From: Planctomycetota bacterium
Lineage (GTDB): Bacteria > Planctomycetota > Phycisphaerae > UBA1845
DNA: 31,688 nt
Direction of reading: 5' to 3'
Assembly (NCBI GenBank): GCA_024277835.1
Contig: JAJRUK010000295.1
Span: 1 to 31,688 of the forward strand
Positions 14,851 through 29,148 of this stretch are shown in pieces. The stretch's first letter is position 1. Each line of letters starts with the position of its first letter. The notes beneath the pieces were generated by a model. The model searched no databases and was not told where the DNA came from. It saw only the letters and a list, made by a program, of their open reading frames with translations. The position numbers and the translations under genes were made by a program.

Positions 14851-14874
14851 GCACCGGTTACAAACCGGTGCCAC
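14851..14874 (+). repeat. REP-like palindrome GCACCGGTTACAAACCGGTGCCAC, solo copy
   Basis: Identical to 29108-29131. Confidence 0.85.
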
Positions 14875-19271: not shown

Positions 19272-19886
19272 TCAGTTGACAAGCAAACGCACAATCTGTG
19301 GGTGGATAGCGGCGAGTGCTTGGCCGCGGTGGGAAATGCGGTTTTTCTGTACTGGGGGAAGCTCTGCGGCGGTTCTGTCCTGATCGGGGATGAAAAAGTG
19401 GGGGTCGTAACCGAATCCGTTGTGGCCTCTCGGTTCGTCGATGATGACGCCTTCGATTGTACCGCTGCTTGTGGCGACGACGACTTTGTCGGAAGTTGCA
19501 AGCGCCATGGCACATCGAAAACGCGCGGTGCGATTCGCCTCCGGGATTGCTTGAAGTTCGCGAATAAGCCTTGCATTGTTGGCCATATCATCAGCATCCT
19601 CGCCAGCATACCTTGCGGAGTAGACACCCGGAGCGCCGTCGAGCGCATCGACCTCTAACCCGGAATCGTCGGCGAGCGCCCATAACCCCGACGCGGCTGC
19701 GTAGTGAATTGCCTTCTTGCGCGCGTTCGCATCGAACGTATCGCCATCCTCAACGGGTTCTTCAATGGCGTCGATATCGGTAAGGCCAATCACTTCGACG
19801 CCCAGCGCTTCGAGCATCGCACGGACTTCGCGAAGCTTTCCCTTGTTGGAGGTTGCGATGAGAAGCTTGTTCACGAGATCGGACAT
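19272..19886 (-). CDS. rdgB: Non-canonical purine NTP pyrophosphatase (RdgB/HAM1)
   Basis: IATSNKGKLRE, ADDSGLEVDALDGAPGVYSARY, GFGYDP, KNRISHRGQAL. Confidence 0.95.
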   Translation of the reverse strand: MSDLVNKLLIATSNKGKLREVRAMLEALGVEVIGLTDIDAIEEPVEDGDTFDANARKKAIHYAAASGLWALADDSGLEVDALDGAPGVYSARYAGEDADDMANNARLIRELQAIPEANRTARFRCAMALATSDKVVVATSSGTIEGVIIDEPRGHNGFGYDPHFFIPDQDRTAAELPPVQKNRISHRGQALAAIHPQIVRLLVN

Positions 19887-19889
19887 CCG

Positions 19890-20735
19890 TTACGGTGTTT
19901 GTTGGTTTGGAAGTTTGACGAGAAACGACGGGACGGGCGTACGTGAGCCGTCCGGTCCAATGACGTAGACGATGCCGCCGTTGACGTAATTGTACTTGAG
20001 AAGCTCGTCTTGCTGCAACTTCGCGACCTGGCGACTGTACTGGCGAAGGTAGGTCTGCCCCTGAGAGTCGTCGACCACCGCGTCTGATCCGAAGAGGCCG
20101 ACCGTGACGACACTCGATGCGTCGGCGTGATGGTAATACGCATCATACCCCTTGCCTCTAAGAAACTCGCAATAATCCGCGGCCGCCTGCTTGAACTCCG
20201 AAAAGTTGTCGACGGCTTCAAAGGCTGCGACCTGCAGCGTATACGTCCCCGTCACGTTGCTTAGGTTCCACGCGGGGTTTCCCGCGTTGGGCGTGGGGAT
20301 TCTTGCCGGAAGGGCAGCGATGAAGTACCGGCGACCTTTCCCATCGCCGAGTTGCTTGATGAGGTCCAGGTCGCGTCGCATTTGTGCGGGCATGTCTCGC
20401 ACACCGGTCTTGGGATCGGTCGCTCTCTTGTAGTAGCCATAATACAGACCGGTCTTGCCCGAGTCGCTGAAGGTGAAGACATCTCGCGCGCGAATCCCCG
20501 GAGTCCGCTTGAGCGCTTCTGCAAACTGAGCGATCTGAGTTTGGCGACCGGGGCCGGTAAGCTCTAAGCAGCGAATGGTCCAGGGTGCGCCTTTCGCCCC
20601 AAAAAAAGAACCCCCCGCTCGACCAGACTTACCGCCCGACACACACCCCCCGAGCGACAGCAACACAGCGCCAATCGCGCAAAAGCAAACCGCGGCGCGA
20701 GCGGTGTTGATTTGTGTGCGCCCGACAAACGTCAT
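19890..20735 (-). CDS. Hypothetical lipoprotein, possibly SPOR-like domains
   Basis: Lipobox LSLGG-C; YTLQVAAF...AAADYCEFLRGKGYDAY...VTVGLF resembles a SPOR beta-alpha-beta pattern; tightly packed between rph and rdgB. Confidence 0.55.
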   Translation of the reverse strand: MTFVGRTQINTARAAVCFCAIGAVLLSLGGCVSGGKSGRAGGSFFGAKGAPWTIRCLELTGPGRQTQIAQFAEALKRTPGIRARDVFTFSDSGKTGLYYGYYKRATDPKTGVRDMPAQMRRDLDLIKQLGDGKGRRYFIAALPARIPTPNAGNPAWNLSNVTGTYTLQVAAFEAVDNFSEFKQAAADYCEFLRGKGYDAYYHHADASSVVTVGLFGSDAVVDDSQGQTYLRQYSRQVAKLQQDELLKYNYVNGGIVYVIGPDGSRTPVPSFLVKLPNQQTP

Positions 20736-21457
20736 TATCCGATCCGCTTCCGCAGTGCTTTTGCTTGCTCGGCGAGGAGCTGTTTGATTCCGCGAGACGC
20801 TAGCTTCAACAGCTTGTCGAGGTCGTCGCGAGAAAAGGTCGCCTCTTCGCCAGTGCCCTGGACTTCGACGAACTTGCCGGACTCGGTCATGACGACGTTC
20901 ATATCCACCTCAGCCGCGACGTCTTCGGGATAGTCAAGGTCCAGCAAGAACAATCGCCCCACTTTCCCAATGCTGACCGCCGCGACAGCCTCGCGAACCG
21001 GGGAAGCAGTTAGTATTTTTTCACGCCGTGCCCACTTAACCGCATCGCAAAGGGCGACGTATGCGCCGGTGATACTCGCAGTTCGAGTGCCACCATCTGC
21101 CTGCAAGACATCGCAATCAAGAAGAATCGAGTTCTCACCAAGTGCGTCCAGATCGACGACCGCCCTGAGCGAACGTCCGATGAGGCGCTGGATTTCCTGC
21201 GTACGCCCGTCGAGCTTGGTTCGGTTGCGGCGGCGGCGCTCGGAGGTCGCACCGGGAAGCATGTCGTACTCCGCCGTGACCCAGCCACTACCCTGCCCCT
21301 TCTTCCAACGCGGAACCGACGCTTCAAAGCATGCGGTGCAGAGTACAACGGTATCGCCCGCCTCAATCAGAACCGAACCGGCTGCGTTCTTGGTATAACC
21401 GCGAGTGATTTTGACGGGCCGAAGATCATTTGGTTTTCGCTTGTTTTTTCGAGCCAA
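20735..21457 (-). CDS. rph: Ribonuclease PH
   Basis: [61 protein letters not shown] start at 21457 with GGGAG upstream is preferred over 21502. Confidence 0.95.
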
Positions 21458-21532
21458 TCGTAACTCCCTGGGGATGAGGTCATTGTCCAACAACAGCAGC
21501 AAGCCCCGACGATACGTCGCGCTTCGTCGCTG

Positions 21533-22021
21533 TCAATCCTGGTTTGCATTGAACGACTCAAGGCAAGCAACGGCAGAGGCTCCCATTGCGGAAAAGCTCA
21601 GGCGGCGCGTGTTTGCGTCGATCGATTCAACTTCGATTCGCAGATGATCTTCGGGGATCGCTTCACAGACCCGGTCAGCCCACTCGACCGCAACGACAGC
21701 GTCCTCGGCAATGAATTCATCGAACCCGAGCGCGACAAGCTCGGCGGAACCTTTCAGGCGATAGGTGTCGATGTGAATGAGAGTCCGCTGCCCTTCGTAT
21801 TCGTTGATCAGCGTGAACGTGGGACTGGTGACCTGTTTCGGATCGGTCGCACCGTTTCCAGACGCAACACCTTTGACGAACTGGGTCTTGCCCGCGCCGA
21901 GGTCGCCGACGAGCGCTATGACCAACCCGCCAGAGAGCGATCGTCCGAGTCGCTGCCCCAACTCAAGCGTTTCTTGAGGCGAATGCGTTTGTAATTGCAC
22001 GGTCTGAGTTGGCGAAGTCAA
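21533..22021 (-). CDS. tsaE: tRNA threonylcarbamoyladenosine biosynthesis ATPase TsaE
   Basis: LVGDLGAGKTQFVKG, VTSPTFTLINEY, HIDTYRL, VEWAD. Confidence 0.95.
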   Translation of the reverse strand: MTSPTQTVQLQTHSPQETLELGQRLGRSLSGGLVIALVGDLGAGKTQFVKGVASGNGATDPKQVTSPTFTLINEYEGQRTLIHIDTYRLKGSAELVALGFDEFIAEDAVVAVEWADRVCEAIPEDHLRIEVESIDANTRRLSFSAMGASAVACLESFNANQD

Positions 22022-22926
22022 TGGACAAACCCCTTTGGCGCAAGCGTTTCAACTGTTCCGTCAATCCGGGCGAGAGCGTAGCCCGACTGAGTGATTTTGC
22101 CAACCTCCAGCAATGGCCCGGGATACGCCCGAGCGTCACCTTCAACGGCAAGAAGCAACTCGAAGTCTTCCCCGTCGCAAAGCACGTGCTCCAGAGGCGT
22201 CTTATCACCTTCCGAAGCGGATCGCTGCGCGTCGGCGCTGGTCACGGCGTTGAGCAATGTTTCGTCGAGCGTTGCCCCAACGCTCGACGCTTCGCACATT
22301 CGCGAAAGGTCCAGCGACAGACCGTCGGTGATGTCGATCATGGCGTGAAGGTGTAGGCCGAGCGTCTCGGCGAGCAGCTTTGCTTCGTCGATGCGCGGTC
22401 GAAACCGAAGATGCTCACCGCGCAGACTTCCGCCGAGCGGGCCGGTGACATAGAGCTTGTCGCCAACCTTCGCACCGGATCGAAGAATCGGCGCGACACC
22501 TTCCCACGGGGCTGCGACAATCGCGACGTCGATCGCGAGTGACTCCGCCCACTTGGTCGTATCGCCGCCCGCGACCACAACGCCGAATTCATCAGCGACG
22601 GCGTAGATTCCCGCGTACAACAATTGCGCGTCTTCCATCAAGAAAGTCGATGGGAAGGCAACGGAGATCGTGACTGCACAGGGCCGAACAGCCATCGCAG
22701 CGCAGTCGCTGAGCGAACAGGCAACGGCCTTTCGCCCGATGAGGTTCATGGGCTGCGTTTGGGTATCGAAATGAACGCCGTCGAGCAGCAGGTCTGACGA
22801 AAAAAGAAGTTCCTTCCCATCAACGCGCAGGATGGCCATGTCGTCGCCGATTCCGCAACGCAGTGCAGGTGAATCGGTGGCGCGACACGAAAGCCAATCC
22901 ACAAACGCTATCTCGGAGAAACTCAT
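22018..22926 (-). CDS. thiL: Thiamine-monophosphate kinase
   Basis: GIGDDMA, GVHF, SDCAAMA, GGDTT, RSGAKVGD, AMIDITDGL, GEDFELL. Confidence 0.93.
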   Translation of the reverse strand: MSFSEIAFVDWLSCRATDSPALRCGIGDDMAILRVDGKELLFSSDLLLDGVHFDTQTQPMNLIGRKAVACSLSDCAAMAVRPCAVTISVAFPSTFLMEDAQLLYAGIYAVADEFGVVVAGGDTTKWAESLAIDVAIVAAPWEGVAPILRSGAKVGDKLYVTGPLGGSLRGEHLRFRPRIDEAKLLAETLGLHLHAMIDITDGLSLDLSRMCEASSVGATLDETLLNAVTSADAQRSASEGDKTPLEHVLCDGEDFELLLAVEGDARAYPGPLLEVGKITQSGYALARIDGTVETLAPKGFVH

Positions 22927-22968
22927 GGGAGGAAATGGTAGCAGAAACCGGGGCCGGGGATAAGAAAA

Positions 22969-22992
22969 GCCCGCGAGCGTAAACTCGCGGGC
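22969..22992 (-). terminator. Intrinsic terminator downstream of the zinc-finger gene
   Basis: Perfect 9-bp stem GCCCGCGAG/CTCGCGGGC with a 6-nt loop, followed by TTTTCTT on the minus strand. Confidence 0.7.
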
Positions 22993-23014
22993 ATTCGTCG
23001 TTCTTCATGCATCG

Positions 23015-23135
23015 CAGGCAGTTGAAAAAGTGTGGCACCGGTTTGCAACCGGTGCGAAGTCTACTGTTTCAATGCCGTTCACCGGGTACAAGACCGGTGC
23101 CGCACTCCAGCAGTCCCAAACAACAGGTCCGCTAG
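23015..23135. mobile_element. Degenerate MITE-like element containing an inverted REP pair
   Basis: Left end CAGGCAGTTGAAAAA (23015-23029), REP copies at 23032-23055 (reverse) and 23080-23105 (forward, degenerate), right end CAACAGGTCCGCTAG; same layout as 29032-29148. Confidence 0.55.
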
Positions 23136-23662
23136 ACGGTGTACTGTCCGCGTCCCTTGCGCTTGAGTGCTGGCATTTCCGGAAGCGCGTTGCTTACTGC
23201 CTTCGTAAGATTTTTGGCGCTTGTTCGGTAGCCAGCCTCCAGAACGGAGGCGGAGATTTCTCTGGGGCTTAGCGGTCGCGCGGCAGCCTTGAGAACTTTG
23301 ACGATCAGGAATTTCAAGGAGCCTTCCTGTCCGCCCGATCCTTTCGGTCGGCCTCGCTTTCGCATTCCGGGGACGACGACGCTTGACTGACCAAGCGACC
23401 GCATTGCGTTTTCGATACCCGCGATTTGTTCGTCAATCGAGTTGCGCTGCGAAGCCAACTCTCGCAAGTACGCCTGCATCTCGCCAAGAACCCGACCCGC
23501 TCCGGTCGATGCGTTGTATGCCGCGAGCGTTCGAATCGACGAACCGCCCGTCGATTTCTTCGCACCGCCCGCACCATGAATCGAATTCATGTGCCTTCCA
23601 AGGTGGGCCGGGAGTGCGAACTTTCGATCACACTTCGGGCACTTCAGTTTCTTTCGTGCCAT
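23132..23662 (-). CDS. C2H2 zinc finger / AT-hook-like / winged-helix DNA-binding protein
   Basis: CPKCDRKFALPAHLGRHMNSIH = C-x2-C-x3-F-x5-L-x2-H-x4-H; central coiled-coil-like helix; KRGRPKG; C-terminal LIVKVLKAAARPLSPREISASVLEAGY...GRGQY; GGAG upstream of the ATG. Confidence 0.75.
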   Translation of the reverse strand: MARKKLKCPKCDRKFALPAHLGRHMNSIHGAGGAKKSTGGSSIRTLAAYNASTGAGRVLGEMQAYLRELASQRNSIDEQIAGIENAMRSLGQSSVVVPGMRKRGRPKGSGGQEGSLKFLIVKVLKAAARPLSPREISASVLEAGYRTSAKNLTKAVSNALPEMPALKRKGRGQYTV

Positions 23663-23946
23663 TTCATATACTCCAATTCGTATCTGTTGACGCTAAGTGG
23701 GTAGACGCCGGTAGTCCACCTGCTTGACTATGAAAATAAACATTCCACAGGGTTTTGCAAGCGATCCCAGAAAAGTTCTTGGAAAACAGTAGGCGCGGAT
23801 GGACCGGGATAAACAAGGGAAAGCCCGCGAACGACTGGTTGTCAGCTAGCGAGACTCCGTCTCCTGGAAGGATGCACTGCGACCGAATAGTAAAGTGCTG
23901 TTGGAAGAGTTAGCGCATTTCGCCATCTGCGACCATAAGTCGCCTC

Positions 23947-26193
23947 TTACCTGCGACGTCTTGCTTTTCCCCTAGATGCTCGCCTTGTTCTTTGTCTACC
24001 ATCACGTTTACCGCGATCGCGGTTCCCTTTGCCTCGCGCGCCGTCCGGAGATACGATGGACGACATAACAAGCGATAAATCTAACTGACGCGTCCGAACA
24101 TCAACTTTAGCGAGAACCACCTGCAGTCGGTCGCCAATCGCAATCCGAATGCCGCTCCGCTCACCAAAGACCGCGCCACCACCAGAGGCAAGCTCCCACC
24201 AGTCGTCCGGCAGCGATTCAAACCGGACCAACCCGTCAATCAAATACTTATCGAGTTGCACGAAGACTCCCATCTTCGCCACACCGGTCACGATCCCCTT
24301 AAACTCATCACCAACCCGATCGGCAAGAAGCTGGAGTGTCAAAATTGTCCTTAACTCGCGTTCGGCACTTTCTGCGCGACGTTCGTTGGCGCTGCACTGA
24401 CTGCCTAACTCGGTCAGCTCCTCCACACTTGGAACATGTTTGCGCTTTTGCTCCCGCTTCAATTCTCCGCGAGCATAGAGGTCAACGAGGCGGTGAATAG
24501 TCAGGTCCGGGTAGCGGCGGATCGGGGAAGTGAAGTGGCAATAATGCTCGCTGGCGAGGGCGAAGTGGCCTACCAGTAGCGGCGAATACTCCGCCTGCCG
24601 CATCGATCGCAAGACGGCAAAGTGAAGGGGATACGCTTCGGGCTTGCCGCGTACGCTATCTAGGAGGGCTTGCAGTGCGAACCGATCCGCCCCGCTCTCA
24701 AGATCATACCCGAGCATTCGCAAGAGCTTCTGCAAACTGCCGTCGGCGAGTTCGGGAGGCGCATCGTGAATCCTACGAAGATGCGGCACCTTAAGTTCGG
24801 TTAGCGTGCGCGAGACCGCCTCGTTCGCCTCGACCATGAACATTTCGATAATCGTATGCGAGAAACTCGTGTCGGCGGGAACGACATCAACCGCGTGCCC
24901 TTGTTTATCAAAGACAAGCTCCGCGTCGGGAATCTCAAGCTGCAACATGCCATCCTTAAGGCGACGCTTTCGGATGCGGCGGGCAAGCTTGTCCATCTCC
25001 TTAATAAGAGCGACGACCTTCGCGCTGGTGCGACCAGGCTTGCCGCCCAGAACCTGCGTTACTTGATCGTAGGTGAGACGCTTGGTCGACTTGATCACGG
25101 TGTTGGCGAGTCTTGTCTCTTTGACGTTCCCGTGAGAATCGTAGGTGATAAAGGCGCTCTTGGTCAGGCGAGCTTCGCGTTCCTGCAATGAACAAACGCC
25201 GTTCGACAAAACCTCGGGCAACATTGGAATCACGGTGCGAGGCAGATAGACGCTGGTCGTTCGTTTCTTCGCTTCCTCGTCGATCGGACCATCTTCGCGA
25301 ACGAAGTGGGCGACGTCCGCAATGTGGATGCCCAGCTCGACGCAATCGCGAGCGAGTGTCTTGATTGAGATGGCGTCGTCGAAGTCGCGGGCGTCGGTGG
25401 GGTCGATGGTCAAAATGGTCTCACCCCGTAAGTCATCGCGATGCAGCAACTCCTTCTCGACATCGAACGCGGTTGCGACCTTTGCTGCGGCTGTTTCGAC
25501 GAGCGGCGGAAAAGCTGTGGGAAGTTGATACTGCTCGATGATACCCAGTGTTTCGATGCCGGGTTGACCAAGGTCGCCGAGGACTTTGACGATAACCCCG
25601 CGGGCGGGTCGGTTGTCCTTGGGAAACTGCGTGACCTCAACGACGACCTTTTGGCCCGGGCTTGCATTCTTGGCGCGAGCGTCCGGGACAAAAATCGGCG
25701 CATGGAACGTAGTCCCGTCCGGGATAACCGACAGCTTCCCCGCGTTGTCGCGCAATTCTCCGACGAATCGGTTTTGCCCGCGTTCTAAAATCTCGACAAC
25801 GCGGGCGTCGTAGACCGTGACGCCTTGCCGCTTGCCCTTTTTCTTCACGGACACAACGACGCGATCGCCGGTCATGGCCCCACTGGAACCCCCGCGCGGG
25901 ATGTACAAATCGCCGTGGGCATTGCGTTCTTCCGGAATCACAAAGCCGAATCCACGCAGATTCGCTCGATATTCTCCGATCAAGCGAGGTCTAGGCGGCG
26001 GAAGCGTCAAGAGTCCCCGCGCAGCGAGGACAATGCGCCCCTCTTTCCTCAGCAGTTTACACGCATCGGAGAAATCGCCCTGTTCGTCAACATCGATCGC
26101 CAGCGCAATAGCGATCTCTTCAAGCAACTGTGGGGAATACCCCTTCGCGCCGACGAATCGAAGAATGCGCTCGGCAAAGTCGCTGGTTGGCAT
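23947..26193 (-). CDS. rnr: Ribonuclease R
   Basis: GFGFV cold-shock domains, TIDPTDARDFDDAIS catalytic motif, HFTSPIRRYPDL, C-terminal S1 domain and basic tail. Confidence 0.93.
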   Translation of the reverse strand: MPTSDFAERILRFVGAKGYSPQLLEEIAIALAIDVDEQGDFSDACKLLRKEGRIVLAARGLLTLPPPRPRLIGEYRANLRGFGFVIPEERNAHGDLYIPRGGSSGAMTGDRVVVSVKKKGKRQGVTVYDARVVEILERGQNRFVGELRDNAGKLSVIPDGTTFHAPIFVPDARAKNASPGQKVVVEVTQFPKDNRPARGVIVKVLGDLGQPGIETLGIIEQYQLPTAFPPLVETAAAKVATAFDVEKELLHRDDLRGETILTIDPTDARDFDDAISIKTLARDCVELGIHIADVAHFVREDGPIDEEAKKRTTSVYLPRTVIPMLPEVLSNGVCSLQEREARLTKSAFITYDSHGNVKETRLANTVIKSTKRLTYDQVTQVLGGKPGRTSAKVVALIKEMDKLARRIRKRRLKDGMLQLEIPDAELVFDKQGHAVDVVPADTSFSHTIIEMFMVEANEAVSRTLTELKVPHLRRIHDAPPELADGSLQKLLRMLGYDLESGADRFALQALLDSVRGKPEAYPLHFAVLRSMRQAEYSPLLVGHFALASEHYCHFTSPIRRYPDLTIHRLVDLYARGELKREQKRKHVPSVEELTELGSQCSANERRAESAERELRTILTLQLLADRVGDEFKGIVTGVAKMGVFVQLDKYLIDGLVRFESLPDDWWELASGGGAVFGERSGIRIAIGDRLQVVLAKVDVRTRQLDLSLVMSSIVSPDGARGKGNRDRGKRDGRQRTRRASRGKARRRR

Positions 26194-28152: not shown

Positions 28153-28521
28153 ATGGCAAAGAAGAAGAAAGCAAAGAAAACAACGAAGGCAAAAAAGGGC
28201 GCAAAGGGAATGGTGAAGGGAAAGTCTCGATCCAAGTCTGACATCTTCGGCGCGCTCGCCGAAGCCAACGAGCTTACACGCAAGCAGATTTCCAGCGTGT
28301 TTGAAGAACTATCCGGACTGATTCAAAGCGATATCGGCAAGCGCGGACCGGGCGTGTTTACCGTTCCTGGTCTCATGAAGATCAAGGTTGTTCGCAAACC
28401 CGCGACCAAAGCGCGCAAGGGCATTAACCCGTTTACGGGCGAAGAGATGATGTTCAAAGCAAAGCCCGCACGCAACGTCGTGAAGGTTCAAGCACTCAAG
28501 GGCCTAAAAGAAATGGTCTAG
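28153..28521 (+). CDS. HU-family DNA-binding protein with Lys/Ala-rich N-terminal tail
   Basis: KSDIFGALAEANELTRKQ, PGLMKIKV, ARKGINPFTGEEMMFKAKPARNVVK; ATG 28153 with AAAGGA upstream. Confidence 0.9.
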   Translation: MAKKKKAKKTTKAKKGAKGMVKGKSRSKSDIFGALAEANELTRKQISSVFEELSGLIQSDIGKRGPGVFTVPGLMKIKVVRKPATKARKGINPFTGEEMMFKAKPARNVVKVQALKGLKEMV

Positions 28522-29031: not shown

Positions 29032-29148
29032 CAGCCTGTTGATAAACGAAGTTTTTCTATGTGGCACCGGTTTGTAACCGGCGCTAGACCCCGCAACAGG
29101 AGAAATCGCACCGGTTACAAACCGGTGCCACACTTTTTCAACAGGCTG
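29032..29148. mobile_element. MITE-like element (117 bp) with 15-bp terminal inverted repeats, CTAG flanks and an internal inverted REP pair
   Basis: CTAG|CAGCCTGTTGATAAA...TTTTTCAACAGGCTG|CTAG (14/15 inverted match); internal GTGGCACCGGTTTGTAACCGGCGC (29061-29084) and GCACCGGTTACAAACCGGTGCCAC (29108-29131). Confidence 0.7.

Follow-up and report, generated by a model that had tools for sequence, protein, structure and literature searches.

A Rok-like winged helix joined to a classical C2H2 zinc finger in a candidate architectural protein of Planctomycetota

What might a single classical C2H2 zinc finger be doing at the very front of a small, strongly basic bacterial protein? The question is raised by one gene in a window of 31,688 nucleotides (the whole stretch of DNA that was analysed), which belongs to a 3.05-Mb metagenome-assembled genome (MAG) that is 85.9% complete and 57.5% GC. 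H-NS-like silencers are known from few lineages (H-NS, MvaT, Lsr2, Rok, and MucR), and for most phyla we know of no agent that tames foreign DNA and bridges the chromosome. The PVC group is noted for condensed nucleoids, and if a widespread planctomycete family has a domain like that of Rok, the Rok fold would extend to that group and a concrete chromatin candidate would be at hand. The gene, its product (hereafter the finger protein), and its probable ribosome-binding motif are laid out as follows.

23132..23662, minus strand: coding sequence, 176 aa, pI 10.9, 18.7 kDa; stop codon at 23132-23134
23671..23674, minus strand: GGAG, a Shine-Dalgarno-like motif 8 nt upstream of the ATG, read from the sequence

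Both M1 and the MA+K start are conserved in the alignment of homologues, and comparison with an 89% identical orthologue in locus L021 gave a dN/dS of 0.06. The gene is real and under strong purifying selection. An artefactual ORF, considered as a reading of 23132..23662 (minus strand), was dropped on the strength of this conservation and dN/dS.

Within the window, the gene sits in a string that is shared with loci L021, L022, L027, and L032.

20735-26193, minus strand: RNase R - finger protein - thiL - tsaE - rph

Twenty genome loci encode the full four-module protein, all of them in uncultured Phycisphaerae/Planctomycetota MAGs. The full order is kept in five of these 20 loci, thiL-tsaE lies directly downstream of the finger gene in nine, and the context is different in 11. 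The tsaE gene overlaps thiL by 4 nt, and the string extends into two more conserved genes at 19890-20735 and 19272-19886. A housekeeping setting of this kind favours vertical inheritance and disfavours a mobile origin; the reading of the gene as mobile-element cargo was dropped in view of the synteny and of a gene GC of 57.8%, equal to the 57.5% of the genome. Since the neighbours are housekeeping genes that are functionally unrelated, and since 11 of the 20 loci differ, no cognate target operon is apparent.

The preliminary description had called the gene monocistronic, with its own terminator. Gaps of 284 and 205 nt separate it from its same-strand neighbours and make the first part plausible; the second part fared less well, given the following elements.

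23035..23055, minus strand: hairpin and then a T-run, 3′ of the finger-protein stop codon; a copy of a REP-like palindrome
22969..22992, minus strand: GC-rich hairpin with a 10 bp stem, then TTTTCTT; a candidate intrinsic terminator by pattern match only
14852-14870, 23036-23054, and 29109-29127: copies of a 19-nt palindrome

Terminator-like hairpins 3′ of the gene number two against a shuffle mean of 1.7, which is no excess, and one of them is the REP-like copy. The 19-nt palindrome, CACCGGTT(ACAA/TGCA)AACCGGTG, occurs three times in the window versus 0.01 expected, and is a REP-like dispersed element whose copy at 23036-23054 doubles as the "terminator" hairpin. A scan for σ70-type promoters across 22900-24000 returned 0 sites, in a phylum for which such a scan is uninformative.

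The first module of the protein is the finger itself.

23576..23647, minus strand: classical C2H2 zinc finger, residues 6-29 (C8, C11, F15, L21, H24, H29), from Pfam zf-C2H2, AF2, and conservation

Residues 8-29 read C-x2-C-x3-F-x5-L-x2-H-x4-H, with a ligand spacing of C8-x2-C11-x12-H24-x4-H29. They fit the classical consensus, as had been proposed at the outset, and the histidine spacing of x4 falls inside the x3/5 given then. Pfam zf-C2H2 (PF00096) scored 22.9 bits (E 1e-4) by hmmscan on the protein, under its gathering threshold of 25.2 bits, and 25.8 bits, above that threshold, in a six-frame search of the genome, where this was the only clear C2H2 finger in the 3.05-Mb MAG. The same family matched 34 of 37 homologues (best E 4.9e-6), and the ligands, together with F15 and L21, are kept in at least 90% of homologues. 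Conservation was counted over 156 family representatives of 150-320 residues. The four ligands on which the preliminary description had staked its finger are kept in nearly every representative having the segment (C 123/125, C 125/127, H 140/142, H 142/145), and the helix positions −1, 2, 3, and 6 (M/L, A, H, and R) are nearly invariant. An AF2 model, built with a 37-sequence alignment, gave a beta-beta-alpha finger with strands at 6-7 and 14-15 and a helix at 18-27 (pLDDT 88-92), and a whole-length family profile matched only eukaryotic (natural) and designed C2H2 fingers among PDB sequences. Zinc binding by the N-terminal finger is predicted from the sequence.

Between the finger and the C-terminal domain lie two disordered linkers, a long helix, and an AT-hook.

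23504..23575, minus strand: Gly/Ser-rich disordered linker 1, residues 30-53, pLDDT below 50
23387..23503, minus strand: long amphipathic helix, residues 54-92, a putative coiled coil, AF2 pLDDT above 90
23318-23386, minus strand: disordered linker 2, residues 93-115, pLDDT below 50 around the hook
23339..23359, minus strand: AT-hook core KRGRPKG, residues 102-108, inside disordered linker 2

Linker 1 is basic and carries extra GRP hooks in most homologues of the alignment; neither the window's own protein nor its nearest relatives have retained these hooks. A 3-4 hydrophobic repeat runs unbroken along the helix, with heptad a/d positions read from the sequence as L59, M62, L66, L69, R73, I76, I80, I83, M87, and L90, of which L69 is kept in 150 and R73 in 132 of the 156 representatives. 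A homodimer structure prediction for residues 50-96 scored 0.41 against a mark of 0.42 and was weighed neither for nor against a dimer. The hook, K102-R-G-R-P-K-G108, has basic flanks and lies in a segment with pLDDT below 50, and 123 of the 156 representatives retain G104, 130 retain R105, and 101 retain P106. Many homologues have 2-10 GRP/RGR motifs. Tandem GRPAGRV repeats enlarge linker 2 in P0047 (228 aa) and in others, which have up to ~10 GRP/RGR motifs. The order of modules given in the preliminary description (finger, flexible linker, heptad helix, AT-hook, winged helix) is upheld by conservation, Pfam, and structure prediction.

The last module in that order makes up the C-terminal domain.

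23135..23317, minus strand: winged helix, residues 116-176, Rok/HARE-HTH-like, from Pfam, AF2, Foldseek, and profile alignment

The AF2 model places a three-helix, one-hairpin winged helix at residues 116-175 (pLDDT ~90), in which N151 and T153 open helix 3, while R168 and R171-G-Q-Y lie in the wing. Strongly conserved residues of the domain, over the 156 representatives, are G144, L152, V156, L160, K/R168, G172, and Y174. The winged helix that had been suspected from its pattern is thus borne out by predicted fold and conservation; the HARE-HTH profile (PF05066) named alongside it reached 14.8 bits, under its Pfam gathering threshold of 25.9, and covered only profile positions 1-36 of 71. It matched 25 of the 37 homologues (best E 4.4e-5). 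Its score is about equal to that of WH_Rok (PF23159), which gave 13.5 bits (E 0.078) over residues 120-174 and profile positions 5-58 of 58. The WH_Rok gathering threshold, 27.6 bits, was not reached by the finger protein; the profile matched 29 of the 37 homologues (best E 9.7e-5), all below the Pfam cut-off, and a genome-wide WH_Rok search returned nothing at E<=1 in this genome.

The HARE-HTH matches bear on one alternative explanation, that the protein is an RNA- or RNA-polymerase-associated factor, whose HARE-HTH-like domain would dock on RNA polymerase in the manner of the N-terminal domain of the Gram-positive delta subunit, or whose finger would bind RNA. Besides the 25 homologues with HARE-HTH matches, 10 of the 37 match HTH_12, the winged-helix family of RNase R; chain E (subunit not confirmed) of an S. 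aureus RNA polymerase-promoter complex is among the structural matches at Z 7.4; and RNase R, TsaE, and RNase PH (rph), in the synteny kept by part of the family, are RNA-metabolism neighbours. The tail of the delta subunit is acidic, however, whereas the finger protein is strongly basic with AT-hooks, the synteny is absent in 11 of 20 loci, and residues that contact DNA in Rok are present. We regard such a role as very improbable.

Those DNA-contact residues emerge from comparison with Rok structures. In Foldseek searches of the PDB, using both the full model and a separate model of residues 97-176, the Rok entries 5ZUZ and 5ZUX ranked first and second (E 1e-2 and 4e-3, probability 0.99-1.00, TM 0.46-0.56). 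A profile of 23 C-terminal domains also aligned end to end with Rok 5ZUX/5ZUZ (E 0.06). The two top rows of that profile search (E 0.04), from 2-oxoisovalerate dehydrogenase, are short local matches and were regarded as spurious. In the Rok alignment, N154-M-T156 pairs with N151-L-T153, K171-P-Y-R174-G-Q-Y pairs with R168-K-G-R171-G-Q-Y, and the R105-R112 tail of Rok (RRRRGTAR) pairs with the RGRP hook; the residue numbers in the 5ZUX alignment agree with those of the Rok paper (PMC6212790). Work on Rok has shown that N154, T156, K171, and R174 hydrogen-bond minor-groove bases or hold the backbone, that tail residues R108-A111 sit in the minor groove, and that N154D, K171A, and R174A weaken DNA binding (PMC6212790). 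The Rok signature (N and T opening helix 3, K/R...R in W1) is complete in the window's own protein. Across the 156 sequences, 65 have D at position 151, 47 have N, and 24 have T; position 171 holds R in 97 of them and F in 45. Considering that D is common at the position of Rok N154, and that N154D abolishes binding in Rok, not every member of the family can bind in the manner of Rok.

Geometry ranks the candidates in another order. In geometric searches of the PDB, the best of the matches listed was linker histone H1.8, with Z 9.3 and an rmsd of 1.8 Å over 64 residues at 22% identity, followed among the matches listed by Z-alpha, forkhead, and Fur domains (Z 8-9.3); the aligner itself rates Z 8-9 as common for the winged-helix fold. 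Rok was not among the 50 matches listed by these searches. By geometry alone, the modelled C-terminal domain is a generic winged helix of the H1/forkhead type. In view of the sub-cut-off profile scores, the geometry ranking, and the variable positions 151 and 171, the domain is termed Rok-like here and is not counted as a proven Rok family member; the evidence suggesting a Rok link is convergent but individually weak.

The same ranking raises the conceivable alternative of a linker-histone-like compaction protein, which would bind as H1/H5 does, using both the wing and helix 3 in the major groove, and would have its basic, hook-bearing linkers for charge neutralisation, neither preferring AT-rich sites nor silencing foreign DNA. 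Several further H1 entries at Z 8-9 stand beside H1.8 among the matches listed, and the flanks of the domain are basic and disordered in the AF2 model. Of course, Z values of 8-9 are common for this fold; moreover, the 25 Pfam families that the 37 homologues match most often include no linker-histone family, and the RGRP hook, like the N-x-T and K..RGQY motifs of Rok type, indicates the minor groove. A protein of the linker-histone kind is accordingly judged improbable.

How widely the protein occurs, and in which forms, also bears on its role. A word-indexed search with the finger protein found 39 relatives, and an exhaustive one brought 636 representatives of 50% clusters at E<=1e-3, 176 of them at E<=1e-10. 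In a class sample of 401 genomes, 137 had a match; the sample includes the unpublished G660, whose one finger-less match enters the count but supports no claim made here. The protein was found in 18 of 22 genomes of the window's own family, mostly full-length and single-copy, and it is single copy in the genome studied here; it is a near-universal, core gene of that family. All 22 genomes of a sister family also have a match, and other families of the class mostly match profile positions ~40-190 only, that is, without the finger. A phylum-wide sample contained the finger-less form in 43 of 401 genomes, with up to seven copies per genome. These finger-less ORFs, of ~130-250 residues, comprise one heptad helix at the N-terminus, a basic linker in which GRP is often found, and the same winged helix, which ends in RGxY. 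Since the finger-less form is spread across Planctomycetota, the finger is a lineage-specific addition, on the Phycisphaerae branch, to an older coiled-coil/hook/winged-helix protein. The three-module protein of the preliminary description needs amending to this extent: its modules are present, but the finger-less form is the older and wider layout, and the finger came later.

Several relatives depart from these two forms. Loci L043-L046 (G723:C74, G473:C92, G586:C129, and G497:C1) encode proteins of 99-127 aa with a finger, GRP hooks, and one C-terminal helix, without the winged helix; three of the four share another helix motif, LGLRDM.LEQL...AR.EA. These short proteins may be modulators or minimal DNA binders. 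P0040 (202 aa, from a JGI metagenome) has the same finger and coiled coil, with a winged helix of the MarR/HVO_A0261_N type in place of the Rok-like one, which makes it a domain swap within the family. P0004 (271 aa), 85% identical, has a 95-residue N-terminal extension unique among members, probably a mis-called start in that assembly. No relative was found among the viral contigs searched, NCBIfam has no family for the protein, and the public names of relatives are "C2H2-type zinc finger protein" or "hypothetical protein". A search of sequencing runs turned up no RNA run, and DNA runs from vent or marine metagenomes came up at a small share only. Among the full-text papers searched, none describes the family or ties Rok or nucleoid proteins to Planctomycetes.

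Another means by which such a protein could act is as a sequence-specific dimeric transcription factor, in which the coiled coil would form the dimer, helix 3 would read an operator in the major groove, the finger and hook would add specificity, and the regulon would be small. Most bacterial winged-helix proteins are specific regulators; domains of the Fur, MarR, and IclR types are among the structural matches listed (Z 7.5-8.9); the finger's recognition positions are near-invariant, as expected for one fixed target; and P0040 carries its MarR/HVO_A0261-type domain. Set against these points, the finger protein lacks any domain for sensing or for binding a ligand, degenerate AT-hooks in multiple copies and a very high pI are typical of architectural proteins, no target neighbourhood is conserved (11 of 20 loci differ in context), and it is Rok, not the regulator families, that gives the best matches by sequence and by Foldseek. 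A dedicated regulator of this kind seems unlikely, if less so than either of the two alternatives above.

The explanation towards which we lean, with modest confidence, is that the finger protein is an H-NS/Rok-like architectural DNA-binding protein with an added finger. H-NS-like and Rok-like proteins share a layout of oligomerising helix, flexible linker, and DNA-binding domain, and families of the H-NS-like kind characteristically have paralogues and truncated derivatives (PMC6936261). The finger-less paralogues, the short forms that lack the winged helix, and the presence of up to 10 GRP/RGR motifs make the behaviour of this family H-NS-like. Under such an arrangement, the coiled coil of helix 54-92 would join protomers into at least dimers, and flexible AT-rich DNA would be gripped in its minor groove by the RGRP hook acting with the surface of N151, T153, and R171. 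The finger, which has basic residues on its flanks and a basic MARKK lead-in before it, would most likely be a second, short-range DNA-reading head of the GAGA-factor type. In GAGA factor, a single C2H2 finger plus basic regions bind DNA, and under the usual C2H2 contact rules a histidine at position 3 with an arginine at position 6 would perhaps mean a preference for G bases. With DNA-binding modules on both sides of the coiled coil, two duplexes could be bridged, the DNA compacted, and transcription silenced. DNA binding, the groove and sequence preferences, and the silencing role are suggested here by residue patterns and models, and the single C2H2 finger may instead bind protein or RNA.

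Would such a protein have a place to fill in this genome? Profile searches found no H-NS, Lsr2, or Ros/MucR in it, in a MAG that is 86% complete and where absence is therefore no proof; the Ros/MucR profile (PF05443) had no match in the genome, though a Caulobacter control matched. Membership of the finger protein in Ros/MucR was dropped, as no ROS_MUCR match occurred in the genome or among the protein's own Pfam matches. HU/IHF-type proteins are encoded in the genome. One HU/IHF-family gene (Bac_DNA_binding, 54 bits, a 143-codon frame) lies at 28231-28518 on the plus strand, ~4.5 kb from the finger gene, and a second, stronger copy is on contig C350. With HU present and H-NS, Lsr2, and MucR not found in the 86%-complete MAG, the H-NS-like niche appears open. 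The standard deviation of GC over 1-kb segments of the genome is 1.9%, a composition so even that no obvious AT-rich targets are visible in the MAG. The Rok-preferred pentamers AACTA and TACTA occur at observed/expected ratios of 0.41 and 0.25 against base composition, as all CTA/TAG words are likewise low; after third-order Markov correction the ratios are 0.88 and 1.06, and nothing is specific to the Rok pentamers.

A nucleoid protein or xenogeneic silencer was what the preliminary description had guessed. The Rok-like winged helix with its contact residues, the paralogues, and the lack of any H-NS, Lsr2, or MucR found speak for that guess at the level of sequence, and the sub-threshold Rok scores speak against it. 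The analogue it named was H-NS/Lsr2; Rok is closer than either. A bolder version, which we offer as a tentative possibility and would not yet back, is that Planctomycetota have their own undescribed H-NS-like class, with a Rok-type winged helix and true AT-hooks, and that Phycisphaerae captured a C2H2 finger. The product would be a two-headed bridger, with finger and hooks on one side of the coiled coil and hook and winged helix on the other, that serves as a xenogeneic silencer or nucleoid organiser; it would give the first case in bacteria of a classical C2H2 finger that works in DNA binding as part of a core chromatin protein.

What appears new here is an H-NS/Rok-like architectural protein, a new domain combination in a new phylum as rated from sequence and models, together with the end-to-end alignment of its C-terminal half with Rok, in which minor-groove residues are kept. 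The fused classical finger, with invariant contacts, offers a rare chance to study such a finger in a bacterium, and the protein bears on how prokaryotes combine "eukaryotic" DNA-binding modules, namely C2H2 finger, AT-hook, and H1/forkhead-like winged helix.

Among known systems, linker histone H1/H5 and forkhead domains are the best geometric matches of those listed (Z 8-9.3, rmsd 1.8-2.5 Å over 62-67 residues) and likewise have basic disordered flanks. They are eukaryotic, bind via the major groove and the wing, and have no sequence-family match to the finger protein. With classical TFIIIA/Krüppel C2H2 proteins it shares the C-x2-C-x12-H-x4-H pattern, the F and L, and the predicted beta-beta-alpha fold, and, like GAGA factor, it has a single finger with basic flanks. 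Unlike classical C2H2 proteins, it is bacterial, its single finger stands at the extreme N-terminus and is fused to a coiled coil and winged helix, and its contact positions (−1 M/L, 2 A, 3 H, 6 R) are fixed and not variable. Ros/MucR of the alpha-proteobacteria shares the functional idea of a zinc-finger-bearing, oligomerising, AT-preferring silencer; there is no sequence match, however, and the finger protein's finger is classical, N-terminal, and accessory. H-NS, MvaT, and Lsr2 likewise combine an oligomerisation domain, a linker, and a minor-groove domain and have paralogues and truncated derivatives, and the AT-hook-like RGR motif of H-NS and Lsr2 recalls RGRP; the folds of both of their domains are unrelated to those of the finger protein, and none of the three was found in this 86%-complete genome.

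Rok, the repressor of comK in B. subtilis, differs in coming from another phylum, at ~22% identity and without a C2H2 finger, and has RRRRGTAR where the finger protein has a canonical RGRP AT-hook; its critical N154 and R174 are D or F in many members of the finger-protein family. Rok homologues have been reported mainly in Bacillus (PMC6212790). Even so, the two proteins are similar in size (18.7 kDa for the finger protein vs. 21.8 kDa for Rok), they align from basic tail to wing with N-x-T and (K/R)-x-x-R-G-Q-Y common to both, and they present the same order of coiled-coil helix, flexible basic linker, and C-terminal winged helix.
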